Assembly (NCBI GenBank): GCA_965223845.1
Contig: CBDCXR010000004.1
Coordinates: 2,688,001 to 2,752,000, forward strand
Length of the DNA stretch: 64,000 bases
From: Planctomycetota bacterium
Lineage (GTDB): Bacteria > Planctomycetota > UBA8108 > SXIK01
Direction of reading: 5' to 3'
Shown: one piece after another, positions 31,959-64,000 of the stretch
How positions within the stretch are numbered: position 1 is the stretch's first letter
Layout of the letters: each line of letters begins with the position of its first letter
The notes under the pieces: model-generated
Seen by the model: the letters and a program-made list of their open reading frames with translations, nothing else
Told to the model about the DNA's origin: nothing
Database searches by the model: none
Translations under genes and position numbers: made by a program

Positions 31959-32127
31959 GGACCGAATCACCGGGCGAAAGCGGACAGGGGCGGGCGGTCT
32001 CGGGCTCCTCTGCGAACGGTGGATCACCGAACGCCCGCTAGAACGAGGCTCGATGAAGGATCCGACACGATGGCGGCGCTGGCCATCGCGGCGGTGAATT
32101 CCCCCTCGCGGCGTCTCGTGACCTCGG

Positions 32128-32154
32128 CGTACGGCCTTATCTGGTGGCGATTTA
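32128..32154 (-). promoter_or_regulatory. Possible sigma-28 (FliA)-type promoter upstream of cheB
   Basis: Minus strand TAAA-N15-GCCGTACG in the ~300-bp gap before cheB; only a partial match to TAAA-N15-GCCGATAA. Confidence 0.25.
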
Positions 32155-32254
32155 CGTCGACGCCGATCCGTCTCGGCGCGGCCGTGTGTCCGCCCGAGCG
32201 GCGACGATCGAGGGACCGACTATCGGATCGTGCGCCGGGACGGGAACGCCACGT

Positions 32255-33130: not shown

Positions 33131-33134
33131 CGCA

Positions 33135-33644: not shown

Positions 33645-33645
33645 C

Positions 33646-35088: not shown

Positions 35089-35098
35089 GCCGACCTCG

Positions 35099-35686
35099 CT
35101 ATTCGTGCGCCGATTCAAGGCTCGGGGAGTTGGCCGGGAGAAACTCCGTCGCGTCATCATTGTTGCCGCTAGCGTCGTCCCACACGGCGTCGACGATCGA
35201 CGAGTGCTGTGCCGCCGAAAGCAGTCGATCGAGATCGAGGAGTGTGAGCACCCACTCGTCGCTCTTCGCCATCCCCTGAATGAAGCCGCAGTCGTCATTC
35301 TCGGCGAGGAGGCGCGGCTTTTCGATGTCCTCCGGCGAGACGTCGATGACTTCACTGACCTCGTCGACGAGCAGACCGACTCGCCCGGAGTCGGACTCGC
35401 CCGAGAGCTGAACGACGATGATGCAGTTGCGTCCTTTTTCCTCGCGCGGACCGAGCTCGAACAGGATCCCGAGATCCACGACGGGGATGATCTTTCCTCG
35501 GAGATTGATCACGCCCCGAACACACGGTGGCGTGCGCGGAACTTCGGTGATGCTCACGCAGCCGATGATCTCCTGCACCCGCAGGATCTCGAGACCGTAG
35601 TGCTCGGCTCCGAGCGCGAACGAAAGGTATCGGTCGTAGCGGCGATCGGCGTGGACCTTGCTCGCCATGCGCTTCTCCTCTGTCAT
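35099..35686 (-). CDS. cheW: Chemotaxis coupling protein CheW
   Basis: [40 protein letters not shown]. Confidence 0.95.
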
Positions 35687-37731: not shown

Positions 37732-38047
37732 GCGCGACGTAGGACCGGTGCGGCGAGCGCCCACAACAGAGGGTTCGTCCCCACGCGGTGACGCATCGCC
37801 CTCGGCGAGTACACTCGGTTACAGATCGAGCTTCGGGAAATCGAGAGACGCTGCGCGTCCACTTGAACCCGGTCGTCTCGCCAGCTCCCACGCCGCCCTC
37901 GAGGCCGAAGCGCGCACTGACGAGTCCGAGAGGGGAACGGGACTCGTCACGGTCTCGTTCCTGACTTCGGCGCGTATCGCGACCGAACTGGTGACGGGCA
38001 GAACTTATCAGTCCGCGGGCGAGGCCGGCGGTCTCACTGAAGGCCCG

Positions 38048-46930: not shown

Positions 46931-47613
46931 TCCGCTCCTCGCTCGAGCCGGTAGATACCGGCGATGGCAAACGCTCCCGGAAGCCAGCGGACGAACGGCG
47001 AAGCGATGCTGCGGACGAACGACCAGCGCGGCGGAAAGACGCTCACCGGGACCTCGTCGACAACGCGGAGTCCCGCCGCGGCGAAGAGCGAAGCGGCGGA
47101 GGAGCGATCGAAGTGGCGTACATGGGCATCCGTGTGGCCGCCGAACGGAAGTCGCCCGCAGAGGATGCGAAGGCGGGCGGGGAGGGTGATCTCGTTCGGG
47201 AGCGAGACGACGAGCTGACCGCCGGGCGCGAGGAGCGCCCCCATCTTCGTCAGAGCGCCGAGCGGGTCAAGCAAGTGCTCGAGCACCTCGAGCGCGACGA
47301 CGACGTCGGCCCGATCGGCCGCCACCGCAGTGAGATCGTCGGTCTCGATGTCGGCCCGCTCGACATCGAGACCCCGCGATCGAGCCGCCTCGACCGCGCG
47401 CGAGGAAACGTCGACACCGCGCGAACGGAATCCAGCTCGCATGAAGCTCTCGAGCGTCCAACCCGGACCGCAACCGACTTCGAGGAGGGTACGATTCTCC
47501 GCGTCACCGAGAATCCAGAGAGCGATCGCCGCGCGCTCGCGGCTCCGCGCCTCCGTGCGCGCCGTGTCGCGCTCGACCCAGTACGCGTCGTAGTACTTTT
47601 CGGCGTCAAACAT
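46927..47613 (-). CDS. Class I SAM-dependent methyltransferase
   Basis: LLEVGCGPG, GVDVS, EVLEHLLDP, SLPN, HVRHF. Confidence 0.9.
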   Translation of the reverse strand: MFDAEKYYDAYWVERDTARTEARSRERAAIALWILGDAENRTLLEVGCGPGWTLESFMRAGFRSRGVDVSSRAVEAARSRGLDVERADIETDDLTAVAADRADVVVALEVLEHLLDPLGALTKMGALLAPGGQLVVSLPNEITLPARLRILCGRLPFGGHTDAHVRHFDRSSAASLFAAAGLRVVDEVPVSVFPPRWSFVRSIASPFVRWLPGAFAIAGIYRLERGAE

Positions 47614-48862
47614 CGCTCGACACCTCGGCGATCAGCCGCCCGAGTCTCGCCCCGCGCTCGGCAGCGGTCGGTGCCCGGTCCGCGCGCGCCACGGCGTCTC
47701 GGAGGCGCTCGAGCTCGCCCGTACGAAACACGTCGAGAAGCGCCGACGCGAGCGCCGGTGCGTCGTGCGGCGGCACGAGACGGCCCGTCACGCCGTCGTC
47801 GACGAGATCGACGATTCCTCCGACGCGCGTCGCGACGACCGGAAGTCCGCGCGACTGCGCTTCGAGGATGCTGACGGGCGTCCCTTCTGAGTGCGACGGC
47901 AGGACGAATACGTCGGCCGCGTCGTACCAATCGACGAGGTCCCGCTGTGGAATCCGTCCCGGAAGACGGCAGCGCTGCGCGGAAACATCGTCCGCGAGAG
48001 CTTCGAGACACCAAGCGCGGCGCGCCCCGTCTCCGGCGACACAGAGCGTAGTCGAAGGTCGCGCGGCGGACACCGTCCGCCACGCTTCGACGAGCTCGAC
48101 GACTCCCTTCGCCGAATCGACATCGCCGACGAAGAGTAGGACGTCCCGATCGTCCTCGATCTCGAGGCGCGCCCGGGCGTCGCCGCGGCGCGCGCTCACA
48201 CCGCCCGCGAGCTCTCCCGATCCGAACACAGCACCGTCGACTCCCATAGGAAGAAGCGTGATCCGGTCGGACCCTAGCGCGTGATCGCACTCGATGCGAT
48301 CGGCGAGGTCGCGACTCACTGCCGCCACGCGGCGCGCACGCCGGAGCACCCAGGACGCGACGCGGCGGAGCAGACCTCGGCGCGCGAATTGCCGGATGTC
48401 CGATCCGTGCGCGAACACGATGAACGGTCGACGCAGCGCGAGGCTCACGATCGCGGCCACCGGTCCCATCGGGAGTACCCAGTGGGCGCAGATGACATCG
48501 ACGTGCCGTCCGCGGGCGGCTCGGAGCGCGGCCACGATCGCGGAGAGAAGATAGACGGCCTGCAGCCAGATCCGCGGGCGCGAGATCTCCTTCAGGCGCC
48601 GTCCGCCTCCGGGGTAGGCGAACCGCCGGACCGCGATCCCCCGGCGCGTCTCCGCCGCCGCGTCGGTCGCGCGGACTCGCGGAGCGACGACCGTCGCCGC
48701 GGTCACCGTCCCTCCCGGCTCGTCGAGAAGGGCTCGCGTAAGCGTCTCGATGAACACGCCGCGCTCGGGCTCCGAGTCCGCCGGATACGCGGCTGTGAGG
48801 ACGAGGAGTCGGATGGGCAGGTCGGGGGTCCGGACGTCTCCCGGCGTCGACGGAGGGACCAT
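47606..48862 (-). CDS. Glycosyltransferase family 4
   Basis: AHW, HGSD, KGV, DVFVLPSHSEGTPVSILEA (EX7E). Confidence 0.92.
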   Translation of the reverse strand: MVPPSTPGDVRTPDLPIRLLVLTAAYPADSEPERGVFIETLTRALLDEPGGTVTAATVVAPRVRATDAAAETRRGIAVRRFAYPGGGRRLKEISRPRIWLQAVYLLSAIVAALRAARGRHVDVICAHWVLPMGPVAAIVSLALRRPFIVFAHGSDIRQFARRGLLRRVASWVLRRARRVAAVSRDLADRIECDHALGSDRITLLPMGVDGAVFGSGELAGGVSARRGDARARLEIEDDRDVLLFVGDVDSAKGVVELVEAWRTVSAARPSTTLCVAGDGARRAWCLEALADDVSAQRCRLPGRIPQRDLVDWYDAADVFVLPSHSEGTPVSILEAQSRGLPVVATRVGGIVDLVDDGVTGRLVPPHDAPALASALLDVFRTGELERLRDAVARADRAPTAAERGARLGRLIAEVSSDV

Positions 48863-48865
48863 CGC

Positions 48866-49828
48866 TCAACGCGCCTCGCGCGAGCGTGAGAACGAGGTCA
48901 CTTCCGGAGCAGGGACGTCCGCGCGACCGCGGGAGGAGCGAAAGTGGTACGCGATCAGCTCGCCGAAGAACCCGAGACTGACGAGTTGAAATCCGAAGAC
49001 GATCAGAACGAGCCCCAGCGCGAGCAACGGGAAGCGGCTCTGGATCGACCCCGTCGCGAGGCGGAGGATCGCGAGGTAGAGCGAGATCGCGAATCCGGCG
49101 AGGCCCATCGCCGTCCCCGTCCCGACGAAGAAGCGGCCCGGGCGAGCTTCGTTTCGGAGGAGAAACACGACGACGACGAGATCGATCAATCCCTGGAAGA
49201 TGCGCTCTTTCCCGTAGCGCGATACGCCGTGCTCCCGCGGTCGGTGCTCGATGGCGACCTCGGTCGTTCGGAACCCGCGCCAGTGGGCGAGGAGGGGTAC
49301 GAAGCGATGAAATCCGACGGTGAGGTGAAGCGCGTCGAGGACTTCGCGACGGAACACCTTGAGGCCGCAGTTCATGTCCCGGACGCGGACGCCGCCGAGC
49401 CAACGCGCGACTCGGTTGAAGCAACGCGAGCCGAAAACTTTGAGAAACGGATCCCGGCGCCGGTGGCGCCAACCACCGACGAGGTCGTAGCCGTCGTTCA
49501 GCTTTTCGACGAGGCGCGGAATGTCCTCCGGGCTCTCTTGCAGATCTGCGTCGATCGTGGCGACGAGCTCGCCGCTGGCTCGAGAGAGTCCGGCGGCGAG
49601 CGCGACACTCTTCCCGACGTTCCGCGCGAACGTGATCACGATCGTCCCCTCGTCGGCGGCGGCGAGCGAGGAAAGTACTTCCGCCGTCCCGTCGGTGCTC
49701 CCGTCGTCGACGAACACGAGCTCGCTCCCGGCCGGAAGCGCCGCCCGCAGTCGCCGGTGGAGCTCGGCGAGCGAACGCTCTTCGTTCAGGACGGAGACCA
49801 CGACGGTCAGCGGCGGGGTAGGACTCAT
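48866..49828 (-). CDS. Glycosyltransferase family 2, polyprenol-phosphate glycosyltransferase (DPM1/ArnC/GtrB-like)
   Basis: VLNEE, VDDGSTDGT, RNVGKS, DADLQ, HRFVP, R..GVSRYG, two C-terminal TM helices. Confidence 0.92.
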   Translation of the reverse strand: MSPTPPLTVVVSVLNEERSLAELHRRLRAALPAGSELVFVDDGSTDGTAEVLSSLAAADEGTIVITFARNVGKSVALAAGLSRASGELVATIDADLQESPEDIPRLVEKLNDGYDLVGGWRHRRRDPFLKVFGSRCFNRVARWLGGVRVRDMNCGLKVFRREVLDALHLTVGFHRFVPLLAHWRGFRTTEVAIEHRPREHGVSRYGKERIFQGLIDLVVVVFLLRNEARPGRFFVGTGTAMGLAGFAISLYLAILRLATGSIQSRFPLLALGLVLIVFGFQLVSLGFFGELIAYHFRSSRGRADVPAPEVTSFSRSREAR

Positions 49829-50080: not shown

Positions 50081-50806
50081 TCAAACCTCGATCCCGTACT
50101 CCTGCTTGAGGAAGTCGAGCAAGTCCCAGAAGTTCTGCGCCTCGCAGGCCGGCTGACTTTCGCTCTCCTGGTCAGCGTACTTCCCGCGTCGCATCCGCAC
50201 CGTCACCATTCCGATGGAGTTCGGCGGATCGATGTCGTTTATCGGATTGTCGCCGACGTACATGGTCTCGGTAGGCCGCAGATTGAGGTCACTGCAGGCG
50301 CGCTGGTAGATCTTCGGATTCGGCTTCGAGATGCCGAGCTGGTTCGATATGAAGATTGCGTTCGGCGCGATGTAGGGATGGAGGCGCATGCGGACGAGCT
50401 TCTCCGCCTGCTTCACGGCCAGTCCCTCAGTGATGATGCCGAGGGTGAGGTCGTCTTTCTTGGCGAGCAGACGAAAGACCTCGAACGCGTCCTCGAACGG
50501 CGCCAGGTAGCGCATCTTCGTTTCGTGGTACGCGATGACCCCGGCGGCGATGAGGACGGCGATGTTCTTTCCGCGGTAGTGGCGACGGGGAATCCGTGCG
50601 AGCAGCTTGTCGAAGTGCTGCTCGTAGTTCGACGAAAACTCGTGGATCACCTCGTCGAGCTCCTCGAGGAGGAGCTTCTTGTCGACATCGAGGCCGGCTT
50701 CGATCATCGCGTCGAGCGCAGCCGACCGAGCCCGCTCCGAGAACTCGGTGGTCGAGTAGAGCGTGTCGTCGATATCGAAGAAGATTCCTTTGAGCGAAGC
50801 GGGCAT
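50081..50806 (-). CDS. HAD-superfamily hydrolase (TIGR02253-like)
   Basis: FFDIDDTLY (motif I), IITEG..KQAEKL, SKPNPKI, YVGDNPINDI. Confidence 0.88.
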   Translation of the reverse strand: MPASLKGIFFDIDDTLYSTTEFSERARSAALDAMIEAGLDVDKKLLLEELDEVIHEFSSNYEQHFDKLLARIPRRHYRGKNIAVLIAAGVIAYHETKMRYLAPFEDAFEVFRLLAKKDDLTLGIITEGLAVKQAEKLVRMRLHPYIAPNAIFISNQLGISKPNPKIYQRACSDLNLRPTETMYVGDNPINDIDPPNSIGMVTVRMRRGKYADQESESQPACEAQNFWDLLDFLKQEYGIEV

Positions 50807-50939
50807 GCTCCGAGCTTCTCCCGGTCGTCTACGCGCTGCCTCGCCTCCGCCGGCGGATGCGAACGGCTCCGGAATCATATCGGCACAACCGAGATTTCTC
50901 AGCAGCCGAGCGAGCGCGAGCTCGAGCCGCTGCGACGAC

Positions 50940-52394: not shown

Positions 52395-52524
52395 TCCGCT
52401 ATCGACTCTCGCCGATGTCGACTCCATCCATCAAGAGACGATCGCGGTCCCGAAACGACGCGACCCCGCGCACTCGCTCGGAGCGCGCGGGGTCGTGTCT
52501 GATGGAACGGCGCAGGAGATCGAC

Positions 52525-55245
52525 TCAGTCGGCCGGATTGAAGATCTGCGTCTCCTGGTGACGGAGATCGACGATGCGCGCGGTCACGAGGATCACGAGG
52601 CTCCGCTTGTCGGAGAACGTCGCCTTCCGGCGGAAGAGGTTGCCGATGATCGGAATGTTTCCGAGGATCGGAATGTACGACTTCATCTTGCCTTCGTCGA
52701 GGCTCTTGAAGCCGCCGAGCATCACCGTACCGCCGTTCGGCACCGTCACCGACGTGAACGACTGCTGGAGCTTGATCTCGGGGATTCCGATCGGCACCTG
52801 GAACGCGACGTTCGTGAAGCTTCCGAGGCTGATGTTGATCGTGCTGATCACACCGCCGATCAGGGTCGCGAGCGTCGGCCGGACGTCCATCGTGACGTAC
52901 TTCTTGTCGTGCGAGATCACCGGCTCGACGTCGAGGATCACACCCTCCTGAAAGGTCTGCACGACCGGGTCGGCGACCTCGATGATCGCGAAGCCGGTAC
53001 CACCGGACACGAGCTCGTAGTCGGCAATGTACGCACGCTGCGTGATCACCGAGACGTACACGCGCTGGCCGTTCGCCGCGGTGATGATCGGCGCGGTGAG
53101 GGTCCGCACGTCCGCGCGCTCCTGGACGGCGCGGAGAATGGTGTTGATCTGGAACGGCTCGAGCCACGTCTGCTGGACCGTCAGGCCGCCGACGCCGCCG
53201 CCCGCATTGAGCGCGCCGTTCTGGCGGAAGCTGCCGGTGAAGCTGTCGATGATGTGCTGCACGCGGCCGGCCCACCGATCCTGTCCCATGATCAGGGTGA
53301 CGTCGCGCGTCGGGCTTCCTTGCTTGACGAAACCGAGATCTTGACCACCCGTGCGCGCGTCGTTGACGACGTTTCCGAAGGGGACACCGTAGTTGTTCAC
53401 GACACCGAGGGCGCGGGAGTCGATCCCGATGTCCTCGAGGAAGTTGTCGTCGATCTCGATGAACCGCGCCTCGATCACGACGAAGAGGTCCGAGTCCTTC
53501 CGAAGGTTCTCGAGGACGGTCTCGATGCGCGAGTGCATGTCGAGAGTTCCGGTCACGAGGAGGTTCCCCGTGTGGTACTCCATCGTGTTCACTTCGCCCC
53601 ACTCGTCGTCGCCGCCGGTACTCTCTCGGATGAGATCCTGGAGCTGATCGGGATCGAGCTCCGAACCTTCCTCCTCGGACTCCGCGATGAACGAGATCGC
53701 CTCGCCGCTGTCCTGATCGTTCGGTCCGCGAAGGATCAGCTCGGGGCCGGTGAAGTCGCGGATCTTATTGAGGATGTCCGAGACGTTGTAAATCCGGAAC
53801 GTCGTGTCACCCGCGACCGGGCTGTCCGCCGGAGTGATGTAGAGGACGTTGTCGCGGAACGTGTACGCGAGTCCGGCTCGGTCGAGGAGCAGGTTGAGCG
53901 CTTCGCGCGCCGACAGCCCTTGAACCTCGAGGGAGACGTTCGTTTCGTCGAGGCCGACGTCCGGATGGACGCCGATGTTGATCCCGAGGAGATCGCGAAT
54001 CTGGTTCACCACCTCGCCGAGCGGCTCGTCGTCAAACGAGAAGTCGACCTTTTGATCGTTGAGGACCGCCTTGATCCGCGTGATCTCTTCGGACTCCTCG
54101 AACGTGTCGAACTGGAGATCCTTGATCCGCTGCCGCGCGCGGTGCCAGTCCTCTTCGCCCGGGAACACGAACACGTTGTCGTACGGAATCCCGGCAGTCT
54201 TGAACGCCTGGTCGAGGAGCTCGCGATTGCTCAAGCGGTCCTCGATCAACTTCTGCCGGCGCTGCTTCAGCAGCTGATCGTGCGCATCGGCACGCCAGAA
54301 TTGGGCGATCCGGTTGCCGGGATCGAGCTCGAGGATTCGATCGCAGGCTTCGATCGCCTTTCGGTACTGGCGATTCGCGATCAGAGCGTGCGATTTTCTG
54401 AGCAGGATCTGCACGCGGTCGCGGCGGATGCGCTCGGTCCTCTCGAGCTCTTGCAGCGCGGCGTCTTCGGCCGCTGCGAGCTCGGAGGTGCGTCGCTCGT
54501 CGTCCTTCCGCGCGCGCTCGCGCCGCACCGTCTCGAGGAAGTTGCGTGCGCTCCGCGCCGAGCTCGCGTCGAAGTCCGGCATCCGGTCGATGGCGTTCAC
54601 CGCGAGCGCCGTGAGGCGCTCCGCCTCCTCGACATCGCCGGCGTCGAACGCGGCCCGCGCTCGCTCGAGATTGTTGCTGATCTGGGCGCGCTGCTGATCG
54701 TCGCGGACGCGTTCCTTTCGGCGGATGTCGTCGCTCACGGCCCCGATGGTGCCGGTGCGCTCACCGGTGAAAAGAAGCGCTTCGTTGAGACGGGAACGAG
54801 CTCCTTCGAGGCTCGGGTCGAGGTCGAGCGCGCGGCGGTAGTGCTCCGCTGCCTTCTCGTACTCGAGCCGCTCGAAGAATCCGTCGCCGACTTCGGCGAG
54901 GACGCGCGCTTCCTGGCGCCGAATCGAGAGCTGCTCGCGCAGGTCGTCGAGGACGGCTTCGGTCCCCGTCGCGCGCGCCCGCGGTGCCGGCGAGTCTTCG
55001 AGAGCGACTTCCGGCTCGTCGTCGAGCTCGGGAAGTTCCGGCTCGTCGGACGGAGCGGCCGCCTCGACGGATTCATCGGCCGTTTCGCGGTCCTGTCCGC
55101 CCGTCAGGGACATCTGGCGCTGCGCCTTCAGGCGGCGGTCGCGGATCGAGTCGGAGCTGCCGCAACCGACCGCGAGGAAGATCACCGCGAGGAGGCTAAG
55201 CCCCAACGCGGTTCCTCGTTCGGCTCTGAGTTTCTGCGTCCTCAT
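52525..55245 (-). CDS. Lipoprotein secretin with N-terminal TPR/coiled-coil region and STN-like domain
   Basis: AAGGAG RBS; lipobox LAVGC; TPRs (AAEHYRRALDLDP, ACDRILELDP); VVIEARFIEI, TAPIITAANGQ, GVILDVEP, TSVTVPNGGTVMLGG, IPILGNIPIIGNLF..LVILVTARIV (secretin C-domain). Confidence 0.9.
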   Translation of the reverse strand: MRTQKLRAERGTALGLSLLAVIFLAVGCGSSDSIRDRRLKAQRQMSLTGGQDRETADESVEAAAPSDEPELPELDDEPEVALEDSPAPRARATGTEAVLDDLREQLSIRRQEARVLAEVGDGFFERLEYEKAAEHYRRALDLDPSLEGARSRLNEALLFTGERTGTIGAVSDDIRRKERVRDDQQRAQISNNLERARAAFDAGDVEEAERLTALAVNAIDRMPDFDASSARSARNFLETVRRERARKDDERRTSELAAAEDAALQELERTERIRRDRVQILLRKSHALIANRQYRKAIEACDRILELDPGNRIAQFWRADAHDQLLKQRRQKLIEDRLSNRELLDQAFKTAGIPYDNVFVFPGEEDWHRARQRIKDLQFDTFEESEEITRIKAVLNDQKVDFSFDDEPLGEVVNQIRDLLGINIGVHPDVGLDETNVSLEVQGLSAREALNLLLDRAGLAYTFRDNVLYITPADSPVAGDTTFRIYNVSDILNKIRDFTGPELILRGPNDQDSGEAISFIAESEEEGSELDPDQLQDLIRESTGGDDEWGEVNTMEYHTGNLLVTGTLDMHSRIETVLENLRKDSDLFVVIEARFIEIDDNFLEDIGIDSRALGVVNNYGVPFGNVVNDARTGGQDLGFVKQGSPTRDVTLIMGQDRWAGRVQHIIDSFTGSFRQNGALNAGGGVGGLTVQQTWLEPFQINTILRAVQERADVRTLTAPIITAANGQRVYVSVITQRAYIADYELVSGGTGFAIIEVADPVVQTFQEGVILDVEPVISHDKKYVTMDVRPTLATLIGGVISTINISLGSFTNVAFQVPIGIPEIKLQQSFTSVTVPNGGTVMLGGFKSLDEGKMKSYIPILGNIPIIGNLFRRKATFSDKRSLVILVTARIVDLRHQETQIFNPAD

Positions 55246-55309
55246 GAGAGGTCTCCTTTGGGGTGGCTCGAGCCCGATCGTTCGCGGGCCTCTCGCGCCA
55301 CCGTTCGGT

Positions 55310-55338
55310 GGGATAAAAATCTAAGCGTTGCTGCGCAA
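55310..55338 (-). promoter_or_regulatory. Possible internal sigma-70-like promoter for the downstream secretin
   Basis: AT-rich patch with TTGCGC-N17-TATCCC on the minus strand. Confidence 0.25.
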
Positions 55339-55379
55339 AAACGTGATTCTCTTCGAATGGATACTTTGGAGCCGCCCCT

Positions 55380-55976
55380 TCAGGTGTCGTAGTCGTGCTC
55401 TTCAGCCGTCAGCGACACATCGCTGATCCCGAGGCGCTTGCAGATGTCGAGGATGTTGACAACCGACTGCCACGGCACTTGATTCTCGAAGTTGATCTCG
55501 ACCGGGAGCCCCTTGTCGCTCGCACCGGCACTCTCGAAGCGCTGGTGGCGGTACTGGAGGTACTGCTCGACCTCGCGGAAGTCCGGCGACGCGTAGTCGT
55601 AGCGAACAATGCCGCCCTCCGTCGCGTTCTCCATGCGCGTCTCGGTATGCCAGGAACCGTCGGTCAGCTGCTTCGCGTTGGGATCGAACGGGAAGGTGAA
55701 CTGCTGCCGCGTGTCCCCGTTCATCTGGTAGTTGAGCGTCGTGCAAAGCACCTTTCCGGCTTTGTCCCAAGCGAGGTAGAAGGCCACCTGATCCGAAAGC
55801 ACGGGAGGTGGTCCACTCGAGACACCGCGATCCTTGGGAAGATAGGCCTGGAGCTGCCCCTCGAACGCGATGAACTTCGCCGTGAGGACGAAGAAGATGA
55901 GAAGCTGGAAGATGATGTCGATCATCGGCGTCAGGTCCGGCTTCTGATCTTCCGTCGAACGCTCTCGAAGCTTCAT
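55380..55976 (-). CDS. exbD: ExbD/TolR family protein with an enlarged periplasmic domain
   Basis: PDLTPMIDIIFQLLIFF (conserved TM Asp); C-terminal VPWQSVVNILDICKRLGI. Confidence 0.88.
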   Translation of the reverse strand: MKLRERSTEDQKPDLTPMIDIIFQLLIFFVLTAKFIAFEGQLQAYLPKDRGVSSGPPPVLSDQVAFYLAWDKAGKVLCTTLNYQMNGDTRQQFTFPFDPNAKQLTDGSWHTETRMENATEGGIVRYDYASPDFREVEQYLQYRHQRFESAGASDKGLPVEINFENQVPWQSVVNILDICKRLGISDVSLTAEEHDYDT

Positions 55977-56058
55977 GAGAACCTCCCGTGGACGCGCTCT
56001 TCTCTCGCCACTCGCGGCGTTCTAGTTTCTCGTTTCATTGCAATCACTGTACCGCCCC

Positions 56059-56574
56059 TCACTCCGGGTCGATCGACGCGACAATCACGCGGTAGATCCC
56101 CGCCTGCCCGCACGCCCAAAACACGTCGCGCGTGAATTCCGCGCGGACGCCGCGGTCGCCGCGGACGAGCACTTTCAGCTTGGAGAGTTTCTTGCCGCTC
56201 GGCCCCGGCTCGAAGCCGTTTCCGCGACCGGCCGGGGGAGGTTCGCGGTCGTACCGCGCCTCCTCCTTCAGCCGAGCGAGGAGCTCTTCTTTCTTCAGCG
56301 TCTCGCCCCCGAACCGGATCAGCCCGGCCCGCTCTCCCCGGTCCTTCGCGAGGCCCTCGGGGTCGCGGACGATGTTGATGATGAGCGGGGCGGACGTCGC
56401 ACCGCCGCCCTCCTGCTGCTCCTCACCCTCGAGCGCCACCGGCAACTCGACCTCTTCCACCTGGACCGTGATCTTGGTCGTCAGGATGAAAAAGAGGATG
56501 AGGAGGAACACGCAATCGATGAGCGGCGTCATGTCGGGCGTCGCTCGCTCGGGTTCTCGTGTTCGCAGCTTCAC
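56059..56574 (-). CDS. exbD: ExbD/TolR family protein
   Basis: PDMTPLIDCVFLLILFF, VELPVA, VLVRGD..ACGQAGI. Confidence 0.9.
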   Translation of the reverse strand: MKLRTREPERATPDMTPLIDCVFLLILFFILTTKITVQVEEVELPVALEGEEQQEGGGATSAPLIINIVRDPEGLAKDRGERAGLIRFGGETLKKEELLARLKEEARYDREPPPAGRGNGFEPGPSGKKLSKLKVLVRGDRGVRAEFTRDVFWACGQAGIYRVIVASIDPE

Positions 56575-56608
56575 GGTTCGTTCCTCTCCGTTTCGAATGA
56601 GGTCGGTC

Positions 56609-57382
56609 TCAGGATGACTTGAACCTTCCGACGATCTCTTCGGCGATCCCGCCCACCTCGAGGACGACGTGGACGACGCGGTTCTTGAAGACCGTGTAGA
56701 GAACGGTCATCGGAATCGCGACCAGAAGCCCGAGGAACGTTGTCACGAGCGCGGTCGAGATACCGCTCGCGAGCTCGTTCGGCTTCGGCTGGACTTCCGC
56801 GCCGGCGATCGTGTTGAACGTCAGGATCATTCCGTAGACGGTACCGAAGAGGCCGAGCATCGGGGAGACGGCCGCGATCAGAGCGAGGTAGCCCACCTTT
56901 TGGTGGAGCTTCGTCGTCTCGAGCTCGCCGGCCTCTTCCATCGCCCGCTGCATCTCCTCGTAGCCGTCGTCGACTCGCTCGAGGCCCGACGCGAGGATGG
57001 CCGAGAGGAAGGAAGGATTGGCCTCGCAGACGTGGAACGCCTCGTCGTGCTCGCCGTCGTCGAGAAGCCCTTCGACCTGCTCGAGGACGTCGGGTGGGAT
57101 CAGAGCGTCGCGCTTGATCTGAAACGCGAACGTGATCGCGAGCGAGAACCCGACCACCGAACAAATCAGGATAATGAATCCGATCACGCCACCGTCGGTG
57201 ACGTAGGTGAGGGCGCTCTTCGTCGGCGCCGCGGTCTCCTGCGCGAATACGGTGTCACCGCCCGCGACGAACCAAAAGAGCGCCACGGCGGCGATCGAGC
57301 ACAAAAACGCGCACACCATTCGGCGCGCTCCGATCCCGCCGCGCCCGAGAATGGGCGTGTCGGCGATCCATTTCCGCTGCAT
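56609..57382 (-). CDS. exbB: MotA/TolQ/ExbB proton channel protein
   Basis: SPMLGLFGTVYGMI and LASGISTALVTTFLGLLVAIP; GAGGAG RBS before ATG at 57382. Confidence 0.93.
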   Translation of the reverse strand: MQRKWIADTPILGRGGIGARRMVCAFLCSIAAVALFWFVAGGDTVFAQETAAPTKSALTYVTDGGVIGFIILICSVVGFSLAITFAFQIKRDALIPPDVLEQVEGLLDDGEHDEAFHVCEANPSFLSAILASGLERVDDGYEEMQRAMEEAGELETTKLHQKVGYLALIAAVSPMLGLFGTVYGMILTFNTIAGAEVQPKPNELASGISTALVTTFLGLLVAIPMTVLYTVFKNRVVHVVLEVGGIAEEIVGRFKSS

Positions 57383-57439
57383 ATCTGAACTCCTCGTCGA
57401 TCTCTCTGAATTCACGGCCGGCTCAAACCAAGGTTGCAG

Positions 57440-58495
57440 TCAACTCTCATTGCCACGGGCGCGCGCTGCCCACTCCGACGCGCGATCCTTGTTGCCGAGG
57501 CTTTCGTACACTTTGGCCAGCGCTGCTGCCGTTCGGCGCTGGATCGGCCATTCCTTCGGGTAGAGCGCGGCGACGCGCAAAAACCAAATTTCTGCCTTTT
57601 GAAGATTCTCTCGGCCCCCGAGCCCGATGTGCGCCCGACCGACGAGGTAGGTCGCTTCGGCTCGGTGACTGTCGTAACGAAACTCGCGCACGCGCGAGGA
57701 ATCGAAGAACACGGAGTCGAGCTCCTTGATCGCGCGGTCGAACTGCTTTCGCGCGATGAAAATCCGACTGCGAAGAGTGTAGGCTTCGTGCCGGAGAGCG
57801 AACGGGATCGAACGATCGCGGGTAACGTTGTTCAGCGCCCGCGTCGCCGCTTCGTACTGTCCCTCCGCCTTCGACTCGATCGCCGCGCGGGCGCGGCCGA
57901 TCACGGCGCGCGACCCCCACTGGCCGCCGAACTGCTCGAGCGATTTGAAGGTCGTCGCGGCGGCGGAGCCATCGCCGAGAGCGGTCTGGGCGAGCCCGAG
58001 CTCGTAGACGGCACTCGGGAGCCACCAGTCCTTTTCGGCCTCCGCCGCTTGAACGTACTTTTGCAGCTGCGTTACGGCTTCGTTGTGCTTCCCCGCCTCG
58101 GCGAGTGCACGTCCGAGAAGGTACGACGCCTCGAGCTTCTCCCAGTTCTGGCCCCCGCTCGACACGCGCTCGAGCCGTCGCACGGCGTCGGCGTACCGCC
58201 CCGCGGTGAGCGACTTCCGTGCTTCGGACAGATCGCGACTCTGGGCCGCGCGAGTGATCGACGCGACGGTCGCGCCCTTCACGCTCTGCACACTCTTTGA
58301 CCGTCCCTGCCGGAACTGAATCGTGTCCCACTGCGCGCGGACGATCTCCACGTCGTCCAGCGTCTGGCCGTTGAGCTGCTCGATCGTGTCGGCGCGCGCG
58401 CTGACGGCAGCGACCCCGGCGACGATCAACGCTGCGGCGGCGCAGCGGCGAAACCGACCCATCGTGCTTCGGTAATCCATCGTCCTCGAACTCAT
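57440..58495 (-). CDS. Exported TPR protein
   Basis: Signal peptide ending ARA-D, short beta-rich N-domain, multiple TPRs (ASYLLGRAL, AVYELGLAQ, ATYLVGRAH), FLRVAALYP; 4-bp overlap with the upstream gene. Confidence 0.8.
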   Translation of the reverse strand: MSSRTMDYRSTMGRFRRCAAAALIVAGVAAVSARADTIEQLNGQTLDDVEIVRAQWDTIQFRQGRSKSVQSVKGATVASITRAAQSRDLSEARKSLTAGRYADAVRRLERVSSGGQNWEKLEASYLLGRALAEAGKHNEAVTQLQKYVQAAEAEKDWWLPSAVYELGLAQTALGDGSAAATTFKSLEQFGGQWGSRAVIGRARAAIESKAEGQYEAATRALNNVTRDRSIPFALRHEAYTLRSRIFIARKQFDRAIKELDSVFFDSSRVREFRYDSHRAEATYLVGRAHIGLGGRENLQKAEIWFLRVAALYPKEWPIQRRTAAALAKVYESLGNKDRASEWAARARGNES

Positions 58496-61431
58496 AGTCC
58501 CTTCTCTTCCTTCGCCCGCTCCAAGATCTGGAGGAAATCACTCTTCTTTCCGCCCATATCCGAGGCGGTTCGGGGCTCGATGATCCGAATGATCTCACCG
58601 AACTTGTTCGCATCGCCCGCCGAGCCGAGGAAGAGCTTCAGCTTCATCAGGGTCAGGGTCCAATCCCAGAAGGTCTGATCAAGCGACTGCGCGAGCGCTT
58701 GGAGCTCCGGGTTCTGCACGGCTTGCGCGGCAACGCTCTTCGACCGAGCCTCCATGAGCGAGCAAGCCCAGTCGTAATACTTCTCCGCGGAGAGCGCTCG
58801 CGAAGTGTTGAGCTTCCCGCTCGTTCGGTAGATCTCACCCAGGTCGCGATAGACGTACGGGTCTTCCTCGTTCCGGCCCTTCCCGGGCGAGAACTCCTTG
58901 ATGTACGCCTTGAGAGTCTTGACTGCGTCCGAGCGATCTCCCTTCGCGCGCTCCACTCGCGCGGCGACGAGGAGATATTGCCGCCGGACTTCGGGCTCCT
59001 TCGCCGAGCGGTGCTTCTTGACGCGGTCGGCGAATTGCCCCGCCGCCTTCAGGAAGGCGGTTCTACGCTTTCGACTCCCGGACTCGACCGCGCCGGCGGC
59101 GAGACGCGACGCGACCATGAGAAGCGCATCGACATCCTTGAGGTCGTCGGCCGAGCGAGGATTGAGCGCGTAGTAGAGGGTGTGGAGTGCGGTCTCGTCT
59201 GCGTTCCCGAGATCGTTGAAGCAGTCCGCGACGTTCAGCGCCGCGTACCCGAGGACTGGTTCGTCCGAGCAGGTCTTTCGGATGGAGGCGAGCTGATCTT
59301 TCGCCTTGTCACACTCGCCGGTGCGAGCGAGGCAGAGAGCGTAGTAGGCGACTCCGGTGCACCGGGAGTCCGAGTCCTCGAGCTCACTCGCGAAGCGACC
59401 GAACGCCGTCGCCGCTTCCGGCCACTCACGCTTCAGGTAGTGCGTTTGCCCGAGGGCGAGAGTCGCCGTCGCCGCGCCCGCCTCGTCGCCGGCCGCGAGC
59501 GCCTTTCCGTAGATGTCCCCGAGACTCGCGACCGCCGCCGCGAGCTCGTCCTCCCACGGGTTCTCCTCGCCTTCGAAGCGGCTCCAAAGCTCGTAGATCA
59601 TCGCTTCCGCGCTCGCCTGCGCGCGCCAGTAGAACGGGACGGCGTTCTTCTTGCCGTCCTTCTCCACGAACTCTGGCACTTCCTGGTAGCGCTTCCGCGC
59701 CTGCTCGAAGCGACCGTCCTTCGCGGCTTGGTCGGCCTCGATCAGCGTCGCCCGATGCGCCTCGAAACCACCACCTTCGAGCCGGTCGAAGAGGGTCTTC
59801 GCCTGATCATTGAGACGAGTCACCTCGGCATGAGCGGTGGCGTTCGGTGTGTTCTGAACGGTCTTCGTCGCGGCCGCGAGGAAATTCCGCGCCGACTTGC
59901 TCGCGAGCTCACTCGAGCCGAGCGCACCGCCGAAAACGTCGAACAGCTCGGCGTAGGCCACCGCGGACTCGTGGAAACGCCCGAGGAGGAAGAGCGCCTC
60001 TCCGATCTCACTCAGACAGATCGGACCGTAGGTCATGAACTCGCGCGGCGACAAGACGCCGAGCGCGGTTTGGAACGTCGTGAGCGCATCTTCCCAGCGA
60101 AGCTCCGCCTTCAGCCCCTGGGCCGCCTGATAGTAGTCCTGTCCCCGAAGAGTCACGCCCTTGATCAGAGCGACGCGCCCGAGCGCCTTCCGCGCGTCGA
60201 TGACGTAGGCTTCGGCGGCAGCGTCACCGTCGTACGCCTCGATGATCTTGTGGATGCTGTCGAGACCCCGCTCGACTTCGCCGTCGCCAGCGAGAGCTAC
60301 CGCGTGCTCGAGGCGCGTGAGGATCGCGAACTGCCGCAGAGTAGGATCGCCTTCGGCGGTCGAGAGATCGAGCTGGTCGTTCTTTCTCTCGGTGAGAACG
60401 AAGTTCTCTATGGCGAGTCGCGCCTTCTGGTAGTCGCCCGCGGCGTTCGCAGCGCGGGATCCGAAGAGAATCGCCTTGATTCGCAGGTCCTTGAACGCGG
60501 CGACGATCGCAGGCTTGTACGGCCGCGCCGAGAGCGGTTCGATGTCGTAGAGAATGCTCAGGTGGTCGTACGCCAGTAGGTTCTGTCCGAGCTCGTAGGC
60601 GATGATTCCGCGCTTCAACTGCGCGTCGTACTCCATCACGTAGAACTCCGAGCGGTTCTCGACGAAGAAGTCCGCAAAGGCAAGCGCCTCTTCGAGCGTC
60701 TTCTTCCGCTCCCCGGAGCCCCGCGGCCATTCGCGTCCGTATCGCGTGTAGAACTCGATCCGGGCGAGCTCGGCCTGGTTCCGAATGACCAGAAGCGCGT
60801 CCGCGGCCTCCGCTTCAGCCCCAGCGATCTTCGCATCGGCGTCCTTGATCTGCGCCTCGATCGCCGGCACTACCTGCTCGGAGAAGGTCTTCTTCGCACG
60901 CGTACGCAGCTTCGTGGCCTGCTCGGGCGTCCTCGAGGCGACGAACAGATCCCGGAGCGCGTTCTGAAGCGTGCTCTCGATCGTTTGCAGTCCGCCGACG
61001 GACGCTCGGCCGTGATCGGGAAACTTTCGCTGAAACTCCTTGAGCGCGGCGGCGAAGCCTTCTTCGTCACCCTTCGCCTTGAGGAGATCGAGCCGGTAAC
61101 TCTCTGTCTGGGCGAGGTCGTTCTCGCTCAGCCCTCGGCTCTCCGCCTTCGCGGCGAGCCAGCGCTCCGCGGTGTCGTAGTAGCGGAGCTCCCGGATGAG
61201 AAAGTCGGCGAACTTGCGATCCTGCTGCGTCCAAGCGCCGCCAAACGGCGTCGTATCGCTCTGCGCGGCGCCGAGGCCACCCGGAGCGGCAAGGAGCGCC
61301 GCAACGACGAGTCCCGCGACCAAGGCGCAGGGTCGAGCCGACGTCCGCCCATAGCGCGGGCGCCGAACCGGAAATGAGACGACGTCAGATCCGACGTCCC
61401 AAACAGCGTGCGCGCGTCGAGTGAGCTTCAT
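58492..61431 (-). CDS. Large exported all-helical/TPR protein (about 980 aa)
   Basis: Hydrophobic signal ALVAGLVVAALLAAPG; TPR-like units (LSEIGEALFLLGRFHESA, TLALGQTHYLKREWPEAA, VYRDLGEIY). Start uncertain (61431 or 61503). Confidence 0.75.
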   Translation of the reverse strand: MKLTRRAHAVWDVGSDVVSFPVRRPRYGRTSARPCALVAGLVVAALLAAPGGLGAAQSDTTPFGGAWTQQDRKFADFLIRELRYYDTAERWLAAKAESRGLSENDLAQTESYRLDLLKAKGDEEGFAAALKEFQRKFPDHGRASVGGLQTIESTLQNALRDLFVASRTPEQATKLRTRAKKTFSEQVVPAIEAQIKDADAKIAGAEAEAADALLVIRNQAELARIEFYTRYGREWPRGSGERKKTLEEALAFADFFVENRSEFYVMEYDAQLKRGIIAYELGQNLLAYDHLSILYDIEPLSARPYKPAIVAAFKDLRIKAILFGSRAANAAGDYQKARLAIENFVLTERKNDQLDLSTAEGDPTLRQFAILTRLEHAVALAGDGEVERGLDSIHKIIEAYDGDAAAEAYVIDARKALGRVALIKGVTLRGQDYYQAAQGLKAELRWEDALTTFQTALGVLSPREFMTYGPICLSEIGEALFLLGRFHESAVAYAELFDVFGGALGSSELASKSARNFLAAATKTVQNTPNATAHAEVTRLNDQAKTLFDRLEGGGFEAHRATLIEADQAAKDGRFEQARKRYQEVPEFVEKDGKKNAVPFYWRAQASAEAMIYELWSRFEGEENPWEDELAAAVASLGDIYGKALAAGDEAGAATATLALGQTHYLKREWPEAATAFGRFASELEDSDSRCTGVAYYALCLARTGECDKAKDQLASIRKTCSDEPVLGYAALNVADCFNDLGNADETALHTLYYALNPRSADDLKDVDALLMVASRLAAGAVESGSRKRRTAFLKAAGQFADRVKKHRSAKEPEVRRQYLLVAARVERAKGDRSDAVKTLKAYIKEFSPGKGRNEEDPYVYRDLGEIYRTSGKLNTSRALSAEKYYDWACSLMEARSKSVAAQAVQNPELQALAQSLDQTFWDWTLTLMKLKLFLGSAGDANKFGEIIRIIEPRTASDMGGKKSDFLQILERAKEEKGL

Positions 61432-61594
61432 TCCTTGATCGATCACTTCGGTCACCGGACCAGCATCTCCCCACGTCTCCACTTCTCTTCGCATCTCTTC
61501 CACCGTTGAAGTCGCGAACTTCCGAGACGCCGCGTGCCCGTCACCGCCGCTCGGGCGATCACGGGCACGTGGCGAAACATCGTCGCGCCGAAAA

Positions 61595-64000
61595 TCACGT
61601 ACCGAAGAGCCTCGCCTCTTCCTCGTGGACTACCGTCACCTTGGCGTTGATCAGAACGAACAGGTTGCGCCGGAGCGTCGAGACTCCACGCCGCCCGAGG
61701 ATCAGGTTGAGGATCGGCATATCGAGGAGGCCGGGCACGCCGATCGACGTCTTCGTCGCGATTTCCTGTTTGAGTCCACCGACCAGCACCGTACCGCCGT
61801 CGGGAACGGTGACGGTCGTCTTGATCTTCGTAACCGAGAGCACGGGCAACTCGACCGGAACCACCGTGAAGTTTCCGGACAGGTTGAGCCGTGCCACGTC
61901 GCTCTCGAGCTGCTCGGCCAGCGTCGGCTGGAGCTCGAGGACGACGTACTTGCGATCGTAGCTGAGCGTCGGTCTCACCTCGAGGATGGAGCCCGAGTTG
62001 AGGACGCCGATCACCGGGTTGATGACCGGGATGACACCCGTCTGGTTGACCTCGAGGTCCTGGATGTACGCGCTCTGCTGGACGACCAGCGTGTGGGAGG
62101 TCTGCCCGTTGAACGCGGTGACCCGCGGGGAGTTGAGGCGCCGCACTTCCTGCTCCTTCGCGACGCCGGTGAGGATCGCTTCGAGCTGGAATCGCTCGGC
62201 CTTGAGAACGTTGAGCTGGTAGACGCCGCCGCCCTCGTTCGTGAGGTTGAACGGATTCACGGCGGAGCCGAGCGGGGTGCTCAGATTGCCGATCGACGCG
62301 ATACGCGCGTTGTAGTCGCCCTGCGGGTTGACGTACTCGTACCCGGGCTGAACGCTCGTCCCTGCGCCGTCGATATCGGGAATCGTGTTCGGGAGGAAGG
62401 TATTGCTCGCACTACCGAAGTCGACGCCGATCTCCTCGAGGAAGTTGTCGTTAATATCGAGGAAGCGCGACTCGACGGTCACCATGACGCCGGTCGACTT
62501 GCGGAACTGCTTGAGGAGCTTCACGAGCTTCAAGTGATTCGCGAGCGTCGTCCGCGCCGCGAGCTTTCCGGCCATGAGGCTGATCCCGGCTTCGTCACCG
62601 CCGCCGCCATCATCCTCATCGCCGCCGCCTTCGAGCTCCTTTCGGATCAGGTCGAGCAGCACGTCCGTCTCGAGCGGCCCCTGCGCTTCGGGCTCCCCAC
62701 CGAGGTCGATGAGGCTCTCGTCGCCGCCCGTCTTTCCCGCGAGCTCGTCGAGCGCGAGCCCCGGAGCCTTGAAGTCCGGACGCGAGCTGATCAGGTCGTT
62801 GATGTCGTAGAACTTGAGGTACTTCCGCACATTCAGGGACTCTTGCGGACCGATCTGAACCGCGCCGTCCTTGATGGCGTATCCGAAACCCGTCCCCGCC
62901 TTCGATCCAATCGTCTGGAGGATGATCTTGAGGATGCTCTCGAGCGGGAGATTGTTGTACTGCGGAAGCTGGATCGTCTCCTCTTCGTGCTCCGCACCCT
63001 CGCGGGTGAGAACGAAGTTGATCGCGGAAATCTCCCGGAGGGTGTTGAGGACGTCCTTGAACGACGTCTCCTGCTCGAAGTTGAGGCTGTGCTTGGCGAG
63101 AAGCTTCGCCTTGATGTCTCGCTCGCTCGCCGTCTCGCTCGCCGCGATCTCGTCTTCGAGGCTGACGACCTTGGGCGCGAGCCGGAACCACTCGTCGCGC
63201 TCCGGATAGCGGAAGATCTGCTGGTAGACGATCGAGCTCTCCTCGATTCCGATCACCGCGAGCTCGTAGTTCTCTGCGTAGGCCTTTCGGAGTCGTTCCT
63301 GCGTCTGCGTCTGCAAGTTGTCGCGCGCGATCTTGAGGCGGAGATTCGCTTCCTTGTCTCGCGCGTCGATGAGGAGAATGCTCTCGTAGAGCGAGACCGC
63401 GCGCTTGTAGTCGCGAGCGTCCTCGGCGGCCCGCGCCTTGCGGCGGAGCTGGCGAAGCTTGTTCTCGACGATGCGGAGGTCCGAGTTTCGCTCCTTCGCC
63501 TTCTGCTCGGCGATCATCTTGCGGAACGCTTCGCGCTCGGCTTCTTCCTGCTCGCTCTTCAGCCGCTCGAGCTGAGCGAGACCGGTCTTGACTTCGGCCT
63601 CGATGGTGTCGAGATCGAGATCGAACGGATAGTTGCGAATGGACTCGAGCACGCGCTCGTAGGCGTCGATGGCCTGAGCGTACTGCTGCTCGTCTTTGTG
63701 CCTCGCCGCTTGCGTCATCAGGCGGTGGATTTCGACCCGCGCCTGTTCCTTCTGCACTTTGTGGGTGTTCACGATATCGCGAATCGTCGCCCCGACTCCG
63801 GCGCCGGAGTCTCCGAGGAGGAGACGCACTTCGTCGAGGAGGCGACCCGCGGCCTCGTTCCCCGGATCGACGGAGACGGCTTCCTCGAGCGCGGCTTCGG
63901 CCTTGAGGAGATCGGCATTCGCGCGGTGGGCTTCCGCCTGACGGACGAGCTCGGCAGCGTGTTCGCGCCGGGCTTCCTTGCCGAGACCGAGCTCGTCGAT
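61595..64000 (-). CDS. Second TPR-containing secretin (5' end outside the window)
   Basis: Frame stays open to 64000 (IDELGLGKEARREH..EEAVSVDPGNE). Secretin motifs VTVESRFLDI, NSPRVTAFNGQ, GSILEVRP, TTVTVPDGGTVLVGG, GVPGLLDMPILNLILG..LFVLINAKV. Confidence 0.9.
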   Translation of the reverse strand: MDELGLGKEARREHAAELVRQAEAHRANADLLKAEAALEEAVSVDPGNEAAGRLLDEVRLLLGDSGAGVGATIRDIVNTHKVQKEQARVEIHRLMTQAARHKDEQQYAQAIDAYERVLESIRNYPFDLDLDTIEAEVKTGLAQLERLKSEQEEAEREAFRKMIAEQKAKERNSDLRIVENKLRQLRRKARAAEDARDYKRAVSLYESILLIDARDKEANLRLKIARDNLQTQTQERLRKAYAENYELAVIGIEESSIVYQQIFRYPERDEWFRLAPKVVSLEDEIAASETASERDIKAKLLAKHSLNFEQETSFKDVLNTLREISAINFVLTREGAEHEEETIQLPQYNNLPLESILKIILQTIGSKAGTGFGYAIKDGAVQIGPQESLNVRKYLKFYDINDLISSRPDFKAPGLALDELAGKTGGDESLIDLGGEPEAQGPLETDVLLDLIRKELEGGGDEDDGGGGDEAGISLMAGKLAARTTLANHLKLVKLLKQFRKSTGVMVTVESRFLDINDNFLEEIGVDFGSASNTFLPNTIPDIDGAGTSVQPGYEYVNPQGDYNARIASIGNLSTPLGSAVNPFNLTNEGGGVYQLNVLKAERFQLEAILTGVAKEQEVRRLNSPRVTAFNGQTSHTLVVQQSAYIQDLEVNQTGVIPVINPVIGVLNSGSILEVRPTLSYDRKYVVLELQPTLAEQLESDVARLNLSGNFTVVPVELPVLSVTKIKTTVTVPDGGTVLVGGLKQEIATKTSIGVPGLLDMPILNLILGRRGVSTLRRNLFVLINAKVTVVHEEEARLFGT

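Follow-up and report, generated by a model that had tools for sequence, protein, structure and literature searches.

Here we describe a locus in a 64,000-nucleotide stretch (the window; G000:C4:2688001-2752000) of the genome, 7.9 Mb in size with 65% G+C, of a bacterium of the phylum Planctomycetota. Toward its end the window holds two secretin genes that enclose genes for two tetratricopeptide repeat (TPR) proteins and for a proton motor of the ExbB/ExbD (ExbBD) kind, and genes of the PilM type lie just past the window. We propose that this is one old, phylum-wide Planctomycetota envelope locus in which a PilM-type backbone, twin TPR-secretins and a dedicated ExbBD stator act together, a reading to which we would give a probability of roughly 0.55. 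The gene content of the locus, its domain identities, its conservation and the paralogy of its secretins are established.

The PilM-type genes and the twin secretins

All seven cluster genes inside the window lie co-oriented on the minus strand, with intergenic distances ranging from a 4-base overlap to 134 bases. The most upstream encodes secretin A (Sec2; 61595..64000, continuing past the window, with the C-terminal 801 codons inside it; PF00263, E 2e-18). It is followed by genes for a large TPR protein (TPR-L, at most 1003 aa; 58492..61503), recognised by weak TPR_6 similarity and by its positional orthologues, and for a small one (TPR-S, 351 aa; 57440..58495; NCBIfam tol_pal_ybgF, E 9e-10). 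The motor genes encode an ExbB/TolQ-type proton-channel subunit (ExbB, at most 268 aa; 56609..57415; PF01618 MotA_ExbB, E 1e-31) and two ExbD/TolR paralogues, ExbD1 (171 aa; 56059..56574) and ExbD2 (198 aa; 55380..55976), each of which matches PF02472 with E 5e-16. The last gene is that of secretin B (Sec1, 906 aa; 52525..55245; PF00263, E 2e-25; TPR_2, E 4e-11; STN, E 3e-6). The Pfam and NCBIfam matches together with the coordinates bear out the tight order of secretin, TPR, TPR, exbB, exbD, exbD and secretin that a preliminary description of this DNA had given. Secretin A is not the start of the cluster, however, since the sequence beyond base 64000 adds three same-strand genes of the PilM-type scaffold. 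The seven genes are the downstream two-thirds of a ten-gene locus, and the recurrence of the arrangement in the phylum speaks strongly against chance.

The full reading frame of secretin A encodes at most 1081 aa and extends at most to L001:3840. Its likely start is Met89 of the frame, after which comes a lipobox, LIAAC, and then an Asp-rich repeat, TPRs (TPR_2, E 2e-4), an N0-like domain and the secretin domain. The Asp-rich repeat is about 100 aa long and lies after the lipobox (window 61595-64000). Secretin B is built alike: its lipobox, LAVGC, is followed by an acidic linker, a TPR domain (about residues 100-330), an N0/STN domain (about 390-482), an N1-like domain and the secretin domain (589-893), and the 'GC' of the lipobox is kept in the orthologue consensus. 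Both secretins are therefore predicted to be lipoproteins. The nearest solved secretin to secretin B is PilQ, whose N0 structure (4ar0) aligns to residues 390-482. The NCBIfam PilQ model TIGR02515 gave 93.8 and 64.6 bits for the two secretins against a cut-off of 284.35, with the PF00263 domain met, and Amuc_1098_fam (NF042912) gave 112 bits (E 2e-32) for secretin B and 52.7 bits for secretin A against a cut-off of 750. By these profile scores the two proteins are homologous to the Amuc_1098 family and stand outside the family proper.

The relationship of the two secretins was examined in a FastTree tree of 107 secretin C-terminal regions, in which the tips were labelled as upstream or downstream and the number of label changes was compared with that for shuffled labels. 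Only 3 changes were needed against a shuffled mean of 37, indicating that the secretin duplication is old and that both copies have been retained. Secretin A was placed in the upstream paralogue clade and secretin B in the downstream one.

Upstream of secretin A, on the same strand, lie the genes for X362, X331 and then a 653-aa PilM-PilN-like fusion. X362, a bitopic protein of 362 aa, combines a membrane helix with an FN3 domain and one additional beta domain. Its family profile, built like that of X331 from an alignment of positional orthologues, matches titin FN3 with E 3e-8. The structural model of X362 is beta-rich, and the Foldseek matches listed for it comprised FN3 and unrelated folds, with no PilP fold among them. 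A word-based protein search with X362 returned 2 proteins, one of which was the query itself. X331 is a bitopic protein of 331 aa with an AlphaFold2 model of pLDDT 70.9. The ten best PDB matches of this model are all Amuc_1100 (6lad, 6laf and 6kny; E 1e-5 to 2e-4; TM (target) 0.49-0.62), followed by PilO (2rjz, E 2e-3); no match between X331 and Amuc_1100 was found at the sequence level. The PilM fusion scores 156.9 bits with TIGR01175, above the cut-off of 133, and matches PF11104 with E 4e-35. It also matches Amuc_1101_fam (NF045709) over model positions 44-463 (E 7e-74, 249.7 bits; equivalog cut-off 650), from which it appears to be related to Amuc_1101 and not an equivalog. Both the fusion and its orthologues contain a membrane helix and a periplasmic domain. 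Runs of at least 8 Asp codons occur 9 times in the whole genome, and 3 of them form the C-terminal tails of X331 and the PilM fusion (L001:4371-8541; C4:2753371-2757541); relatives have Lys/Glu-rich tails in place of poly-Asp. Further upstream, beyond the PilM fusion, are genes for UDG, a MiaB-like enzyme and a cytidylyltransferase.

Given the PilM-PilN-like fusion, the Amuc_1100/PilO-like protein and the FN3 protein encoded upstream, the secretins belong to a pilus-like (type IV filament) system, and the locus is therefore not a stand-alone motor-plus-secretin machine. Its upstream third matches Akkermansia Amuc_1101-1100-1099-1098 in order and in kind: both have a PilM-like protein, an Amuc_1100-like bitopic protein, a further bitopic protein and a secretin. 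The locus is the Planctomycetota form of a pilus-like secretin locus of the Planctomycetes-Verrucomicrobia-Chlamydiae (PVC) group known from Akkermansia (Amuc_1098-1101, MUL2). There are clear differences from Amuc_1098-1102, however. The scores here are far under the equivalog cut-offs (249.7 versus 650 and 112 versus 750), there are two secretins rather than one, and the ExbB-ExbD-ExbD and TPR genes lie inside the locus, whereas MUL1, the other mucin locus of Akkermansia, is separate there. An upstream Amuc_1102-like pilin gene is also missing, as the approximately 450 bases between the PilM fusion and UDG hold short arginine-rich open reading frames only, although no structural search was made for a copy elsewhere. 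One report describes the proteins of the Akkermansia cluster as abundant in the envelope (PMC5332112). According to secondary papers, MUL genes 'encoding pili and periplasmic protein complexes' are necessary for the accumulation of mucin inside the cell, MUL2 corresponds to amuc_1099-1102 and includes PilM and a pilin-like protein, mul1A (amuc_0544) is termed a mucin transport gene, and the MUL system is viewed as an unusual import system.

The nested motor and its conservation across the phylum

By hydropathy, ExbB has a signal-like segment at its N-terminus plus three more hydrophobic segments. Its top NCBIfam match is TolQ (83 bits, cut-off 221), and the exbB model gives 62 bits (cut-off 206), scores by which it is evidently not an equivalog of the ExbB of Ton systems. 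With the TolR model the two ExbD proteins score 26 and 24 bits (cut-off 127). Both were said at the outset to keep the membrane aspartate, and the sequences confirm this: it is residue 20 in ExbD1 as well as in ExbD2, and D20 of ExbD2 is invariant in an alignment of 32 orthologues. The periplasmic domain of ExbD2 is enlarged. A predicted complex of ExbD2 (residues 45-198) with the N0-N1 region of secretin B (385-588), for which alignments of both were supplied, scored 0.00 against a mark of 0.32 and carries no weight either way.

The small TPR gene starts within the 4-base overlap with the stop of TPR-L, and its product has a predicted signal peptide. The open reading frame at 57447-58613 was rejected as the small TPR gene in favor of the overlapping frame given above. 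TPR-S scores 39.2 bits with tol_pal_ybgF, under the cut-off of 90.1, and its closest Atlas clusters are Planctomycetota TPR proteins (0.97-0.98). Besides TPR_6, TPR-L of the window has weak NCBIfam matches to PorW/SprE and YbgF; its orthologue in locus L041 matches TPR_14 with E 2e-18. Against PorW/SprE, TPR-L and TPR-S reach 23-26 bits (cut-off 250). A signal-peptide-like hydrophobic segment lies at residues 54-80 of TPR-L, the start codon of which is uncertain. Positional orthologues of TPR-L were found in many loci by tblastn, and those of TPR-S likewise.

The genome contains five motor sets, namely two Ton sets, two cassettes with giant TPR and PD40 proteins, and the present cluster. The Ton sets have their own TonB and receptors and lie at other loci beside other ExbB copies. 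The two cassettes are paralogous (L142:3149-11888, C4:1.460-1.469 Mb; L143:2971-11865, C4:2.011-2.020 Mb), each encoding a TPR protein of giant size (about 1170 aa), ExbB, just one ExbD and a PD40-repeat protein of 1300 aa with a terpene-cyclase-like part; they may be Tol-like systems of the organism. A comparable arrangement has been published for the PVC group, in which a gene for a TPR protein, one tolQ-like gene and two different tolR-like genes are followed by that of a von Willebrand factor A (vWA) force transducer (Mol Biol Evol 2025, PMC12204202). The order TPR-L, TPR-S, ExbB, ExbD1 and ExbD2 is the same as in that cassette (PMC12204202), but the next gene here encodes a lipoprotein secretin rather than an inner-membrane-tethered vWA protein. 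The word 'secretin' has zero occurrences in the main text of that paper. No vWA match was found in the cluster proteins with Pfam and NCBIfam, and none of them was found to contain a TonB-like helix with a conserved His. Because the PD40 cassettes and the vWA cassette (PMC12204202) both place such a gene there, we suggest as a rule that the gene 3' of the tolR-like genes encodes the client or arm of the motor. Secretin B, as the product of the next gene here, is therefore the proposed client.

Relatives of secretin B at E 1e-20 or better were present in 183 of 201 sampled genomes of the phylum, and many genomes gave two secretin matches 6-14 kb apart on one strand. In a first sample of 20 loci, which were picked for a double secretin match, ExbB lay between the secretins in 16, ExbD only in 1 and neither in 3; PilM was upstream in 9. 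A second sample, not picked for two secretins, consisted of the best 80 of 525 loci from a search with a secretin-B profile. The titles of these sequences were nearly all Planctomycetota, with two metagenome-assembled genomes (MAGs) labelled Bacillota and Proteobacteria and a few labelled 'uncultured bacterium'. ExbB lay between two secretins in 34 of the 80, and in 19 others ExbB/ExbD stood beside a secretin in a locus too short to show a second one. Ten had two secretins, often directly adjacent, with no motor between them, and 17 were uninformative. The linkage of secretin with exbBD is conserved in related genomes, with ExbB and/or ExbD adjoining a secretin in 53 of the 63 informative loci. 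The nested order holds at deep divergence (28-30% identity), and the cluster is also found in an anammox MAG labelled Ca. Kuenenia.

Several points weigh against the proposed joint action of the parts. In 10 of the 63 informative loci there is no motor between the secretins. One genome of 12.3 Mb has genes for a TPR-L-like protein, ExbB and four ExbD (L139:2533-9910; G104:C82) on a contig separate from its adjacent secretin pair, and so the motor module can be unlinked from the secretins. In several distant lineages, PilM was not detected in the interval from UDG to secretin A, leaving secretin, TPR, TPR, ExbB, ExbD(s) and secretin as the most constant core. UDG stands just upstream of the locus here and in six other loci examined. 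A HAD-family hydrolase gene (TIGR02253 type, 173 bits, cut-off 169.75; here at 50081..50812, minus strand) trails secretin B phylum-wide; of 66 loci that extend far enough downstream of the last secretin, 56 have it at a distance of no more than 2.5 kb. These two genes are as conserved in position as those of the motor; since genes that look unlinked in function are equally syntenic, gene order is weaker evidence of joint function than usual. Coupling between motor and secretin is a prediction from the genes, and the direction and substrate of transport are drawn purely from analogy. Lastly, no transducer with a TonB-like conserved-His helix was found, the search covering the membrane helix in 12 PilM orthologues and the consensus sequences of X331 and X362.

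Some of these observations could be read to mean that two unrelated systems are adjacent by inherited order, a Tol-like motor serving outer-membrane upkeep or division and a pilus-like secretin pair on which it does not act. TolQ and YbgF as the top matches of ExbB and TPR-S would suit this, as would the synteny of the plainly unrelated UDG and HAD genes and a motor that is at times missing or unlinked. We regard this as unlikely, however, because the motor lies nested within a pair of paralogous secretins, with a spacing like that of an operon that includes the 4-base overlap, and is kept there at 28-30% identity. In addition, the cluster has no TolA, TolB or Pal, and the two TPR-ExbB-ExbD cassettes with PD40 proteins, PD40 being a TolB-like repeat, are better Tol candidates.

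Energy sources, known systems and neighboring genes

None of the seven cluster proteins of the window has a TonB, TolA, TolB or Pal domain by Pfam and NCBIfam. Genome-wide there are 3 matches to TonB_C and 5 TonB-dependent receptors, all at other loci, and the 11 matches to T2SSE, 12 to T2SSF and 27 to the pilin N_methyl motif all fall outside the cluster. The cluster had been described as having no TonB, TonB-dependent receptor, ATPase, platform or pilin, and this holds with all genome-wide matches at other loci; immediately upstream, too, there is no ATPase, platform and pilin set and no TonB with a receptor. Relatives of eleven ATPase or platform proteins of the genome were not detected at E 1e-10 in any of 106 related loci totalling 1.7 Mb. 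Other loci of the genome include a canonical pilM-to-secretin locus at 0.74 Mb, two clusters resembling type II secretion systems and one of the Tad type. There is also an orphan set (L144:3811-10407; C4:7.537-7.543 Mb) of an S26 signal peptidase, two ATPases of the PilB/GspE type that carry MshEN domains and a single platform protein of the PilC type; no secretin or pilin is close by. We regard this set as a candidate energy module serving a pilM/secretin locus at another site. The T2SSE, T2SSF and pilin matches together with the orphan set mean that independence from an ATPase cannot be claimed. An argument for such independence from phyletic absence was dropped, as 200 of 201 genomes from the phylum have T2SSE, which therefore provides no discrimination.

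With these genes in the same cell, the locus might be an ordinary ATP-driven machine similar to a type IV pilus or type II secretion system, its ATPase, platform and pilins encoded elsewhere. The ExbBD and TPR proteins would then help in assembly, such as secretin insertion, piloting or wall anchoring, and would not power transport. The PilM-type scaffold is consistent with such a machine, pilus-like systems often encode their ATPase elsewhere, and the matches outside the cluster include the orphan PilB-PilB-PilC genes. In known systems the TPR lipoproteins PilF, PilW and Tgl pilot PilQ. We nevertheless consider this reading improbable. An ATPase or platform gene occurs in 0 of the 106 related loci, a canonical pilM-to-secretin locus is already present at 0.74 Mb, and we know of no precedent for a proton motor used for assembly alone.

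Compared with the PilMNOPQ set of type IVa pili, the locus shares an actin-like PilM above the TIGR01175 cut-off, the PilO-like fold of X331 and a PilQ-like secretin with an N0 domain. It differs in that its PilM forms a fusion with a membrane helix and a periplasmic domain, its third protein is of the FN3 rather than the PilP type, and its secretins, which have lipoboxes as well as TPR domains, do not reach the PilQ cut-off; the canonical locus of this kind exists separately in the genome. With Ton and Tol-Pal it has in common a MotA/ExbB-family channel, ExbD/TolR proteins with the membrane Asp and a CpoB/YbgF-like TPR protein, but it has no TonB, TolA, TolB, Pal or receptor, it has two ExbD paralogues, and the NCBIfam scores are below the cut-offs. 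Type IX secretion, which consists of the GldLM motor, the TPR lipoprotein PorW/SprE and the SprA translocon, offers an analogy only: it too combines a proton-driven inner-membrane motor with TPR proteins and a large outer-membrane channel. The channel here is a secretin instead, and no GldL/M/K/N or SprA homologues were seen, although these were not specifically tested.

The make-up of one TolQ-like and two TolR-like proteins is also that of AglR/AglQ/AglS in Myxococcus, and a motor for surface motility or surface transport like Agl-Glt/Nfs could be imagined in which the secretins are outer-membrane parts. One ExbB with two ExbD and two TPR proteins would fit such a motor. We consider it very improbable nonetheless. 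GltG/GltJ-type TonB-like proteins are absent from the cluster, and no Glt family reached its cut-off in a search that did not include the outer-membrane Glt barrels; the sole match was a weak one to GltE (32 bits, cut-off 225) on TPR967, a TPR protein encoded downstream of the locus. To our knowledge, secretins are not part of Agl-Glt. The cluster is moreover present in the MAG labelled Ca. Kuenenia, and we know of no report of gliding in the anammox group.

The preliminary description did not recognise the cluster as a characterised system. For the pilus-like half this has to be revised, as it matches Amuc_1098-1101/MUL2, and TPR-tolQ-tolR-tolR cassettes were published in 2025; what stands is that the combination itself appears to be undescribed. 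Full-text literature searches, which did not cover the supplements of the cited papers, found no description of a secretin-ExbBD cluster in Planctomycetota. The combination is apparently new, and both of its halves have published relatives.

Downstream of the HAD gene, still on the minus strand, Pfam and NCBIfam identify an ArnC-like GT2 polyprenyl-phosphate sugar transferase (48866-49828), a GT4 (47606-48862), a methyltransferase (46927-47613), the 967-aa TPR967 (44027-46930) and an 870-aa protein with spermidine-synthase-like parts (U870; 41418-44030). Among the 66 loci that extend far enough past the last secretin, GT2, GT4 and TPR967 were found in 37 each, U870 in 22 and the methyltransferase in 11. 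The block from GT2 to U870 (41418..49828) is conserved at class level; it may be an arm of the machine for glycosylation in the periplasm, or may simply be syntenic. At a distance of 15-20 kb downstream from the secretin locus are chemotaxis genes (CheB, a CheX-type response regulator, CheD, CheW and CheA; 30924-37764, minus strand).

Between secretin B and the HAD gene is a gene for a Cys-type sulfatase (50940-52427, minus strand; CSPTR motif; PF00884, E 1e-50). No relative examined has it in that position, and it looks like a lineage-specific insertion rather than a part of the cluster. The loci of one large subclade have, after the last ExbD and before secretin B, a gene (about 640 aa) annotated as 'Sulfatase family + TPR' (L035:14320-16203, L036:13820-15796, L037:14580-16436, L038:3374-5203, L039:3204-5129, L040:14902-16869, L041:14854-16767 and L050:10567-12510). 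The sulfatase motif C/SxPxR is absent from all 8 of these genes, which have a TLP[SA]H-like sequence instead, presumably of the Thr-nucleophile phosphotransferase type as in LtaS, EptA and PptA. A link of the locus to sulfated glycans was considered and dropped, since the sulfatase of the window is not conserved beside secretin B and the 'Sulfatase+TPR' genes have no C/SxPxR in 8 of 8.

A proposed mechanism and its meaning

For the joint action of the parts, the direction of transport and the path of coupling, we infer the following. The backbone would consist of the PilM-PilN-like fusion, the Amuc_1100/PilO-like bitopic protein, the FN3-bearing bitopic protein and the lipoprotein TPR-secretin A, and the locus would be closed by secretin B as a second, anciently duplicated lipoprotein with TPR, N0 and secretin domains. 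Between them would sit a TolQR/ExbBD-type stator, with one ExbB, two ExbD and the proton-relay Asp intact, and two periplasmic TPR proteins. An ExbB pentamer with the ExbD1/ExbD2 pair could, within the inner membrane, harness proton flow to produce force or rotation. TonB and TolA being absent, the force might pass through the enlarged ExbD2 domain, the TPR proteins or both to the periplasmic TPR/N0 parts of the secretins, where it could serve to open the pores, hold them or assemble them. Alignment of the channel would fall to the PilM platform, which may cooperate with a PilB/PilC set whose genes lie elsewhere.

It had been suggested earlier that a secretin is gated or energised by a proton motor through TPR scaffolds. 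This is partly supported, since no ATPase, platform and pilin set and no TonB with a receptor was found upstream and the linkage is conserved, and such coupling remains the best, if inferential, reading; what has changed is that the secretins are now seen as part of a pilus-like system. By analogy, the job of the machine is most likely to move a large substrate across the outer membrane. We lean towards the uptake of polymers into the periplasm, because Akkermansia MUL genes are reported to be needed for mucin import. More tentatively, and with considerable doubt, the locus may encode a proton-powered secretin import machine, an apparatus long looked for, that takes whole polymers into the enlarged periplasm of Planctomycetota and is possibly the protein core of their crateriform pits and fibres. 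In it the stator would, via the TPR proteins, open or drive two secretin rings without TonB and perhaps without a dedicated ATPase.

Secretins are otherwise the outer-membrane parts of ATP-driven machines and of phage export, and ExbBD/TolQR motors are known to act on TonB, TolA and a small number of other clients. If the parts described here work together, they would represent a new class of client for these motors and a new way to power or gate a secretin. Some Planctomycetota import polysaccharides 'via an unknown mechanism', as stated in a paper on Planctomycetota genomics. The cluster bears on this import, given that homologous genes of Akkermansia are reported to be needed for that of mucin. 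It provides a defined set of about ten genes for study in planctomycetes and is a candidate route for large molecules across the planctomycete outer membrane.

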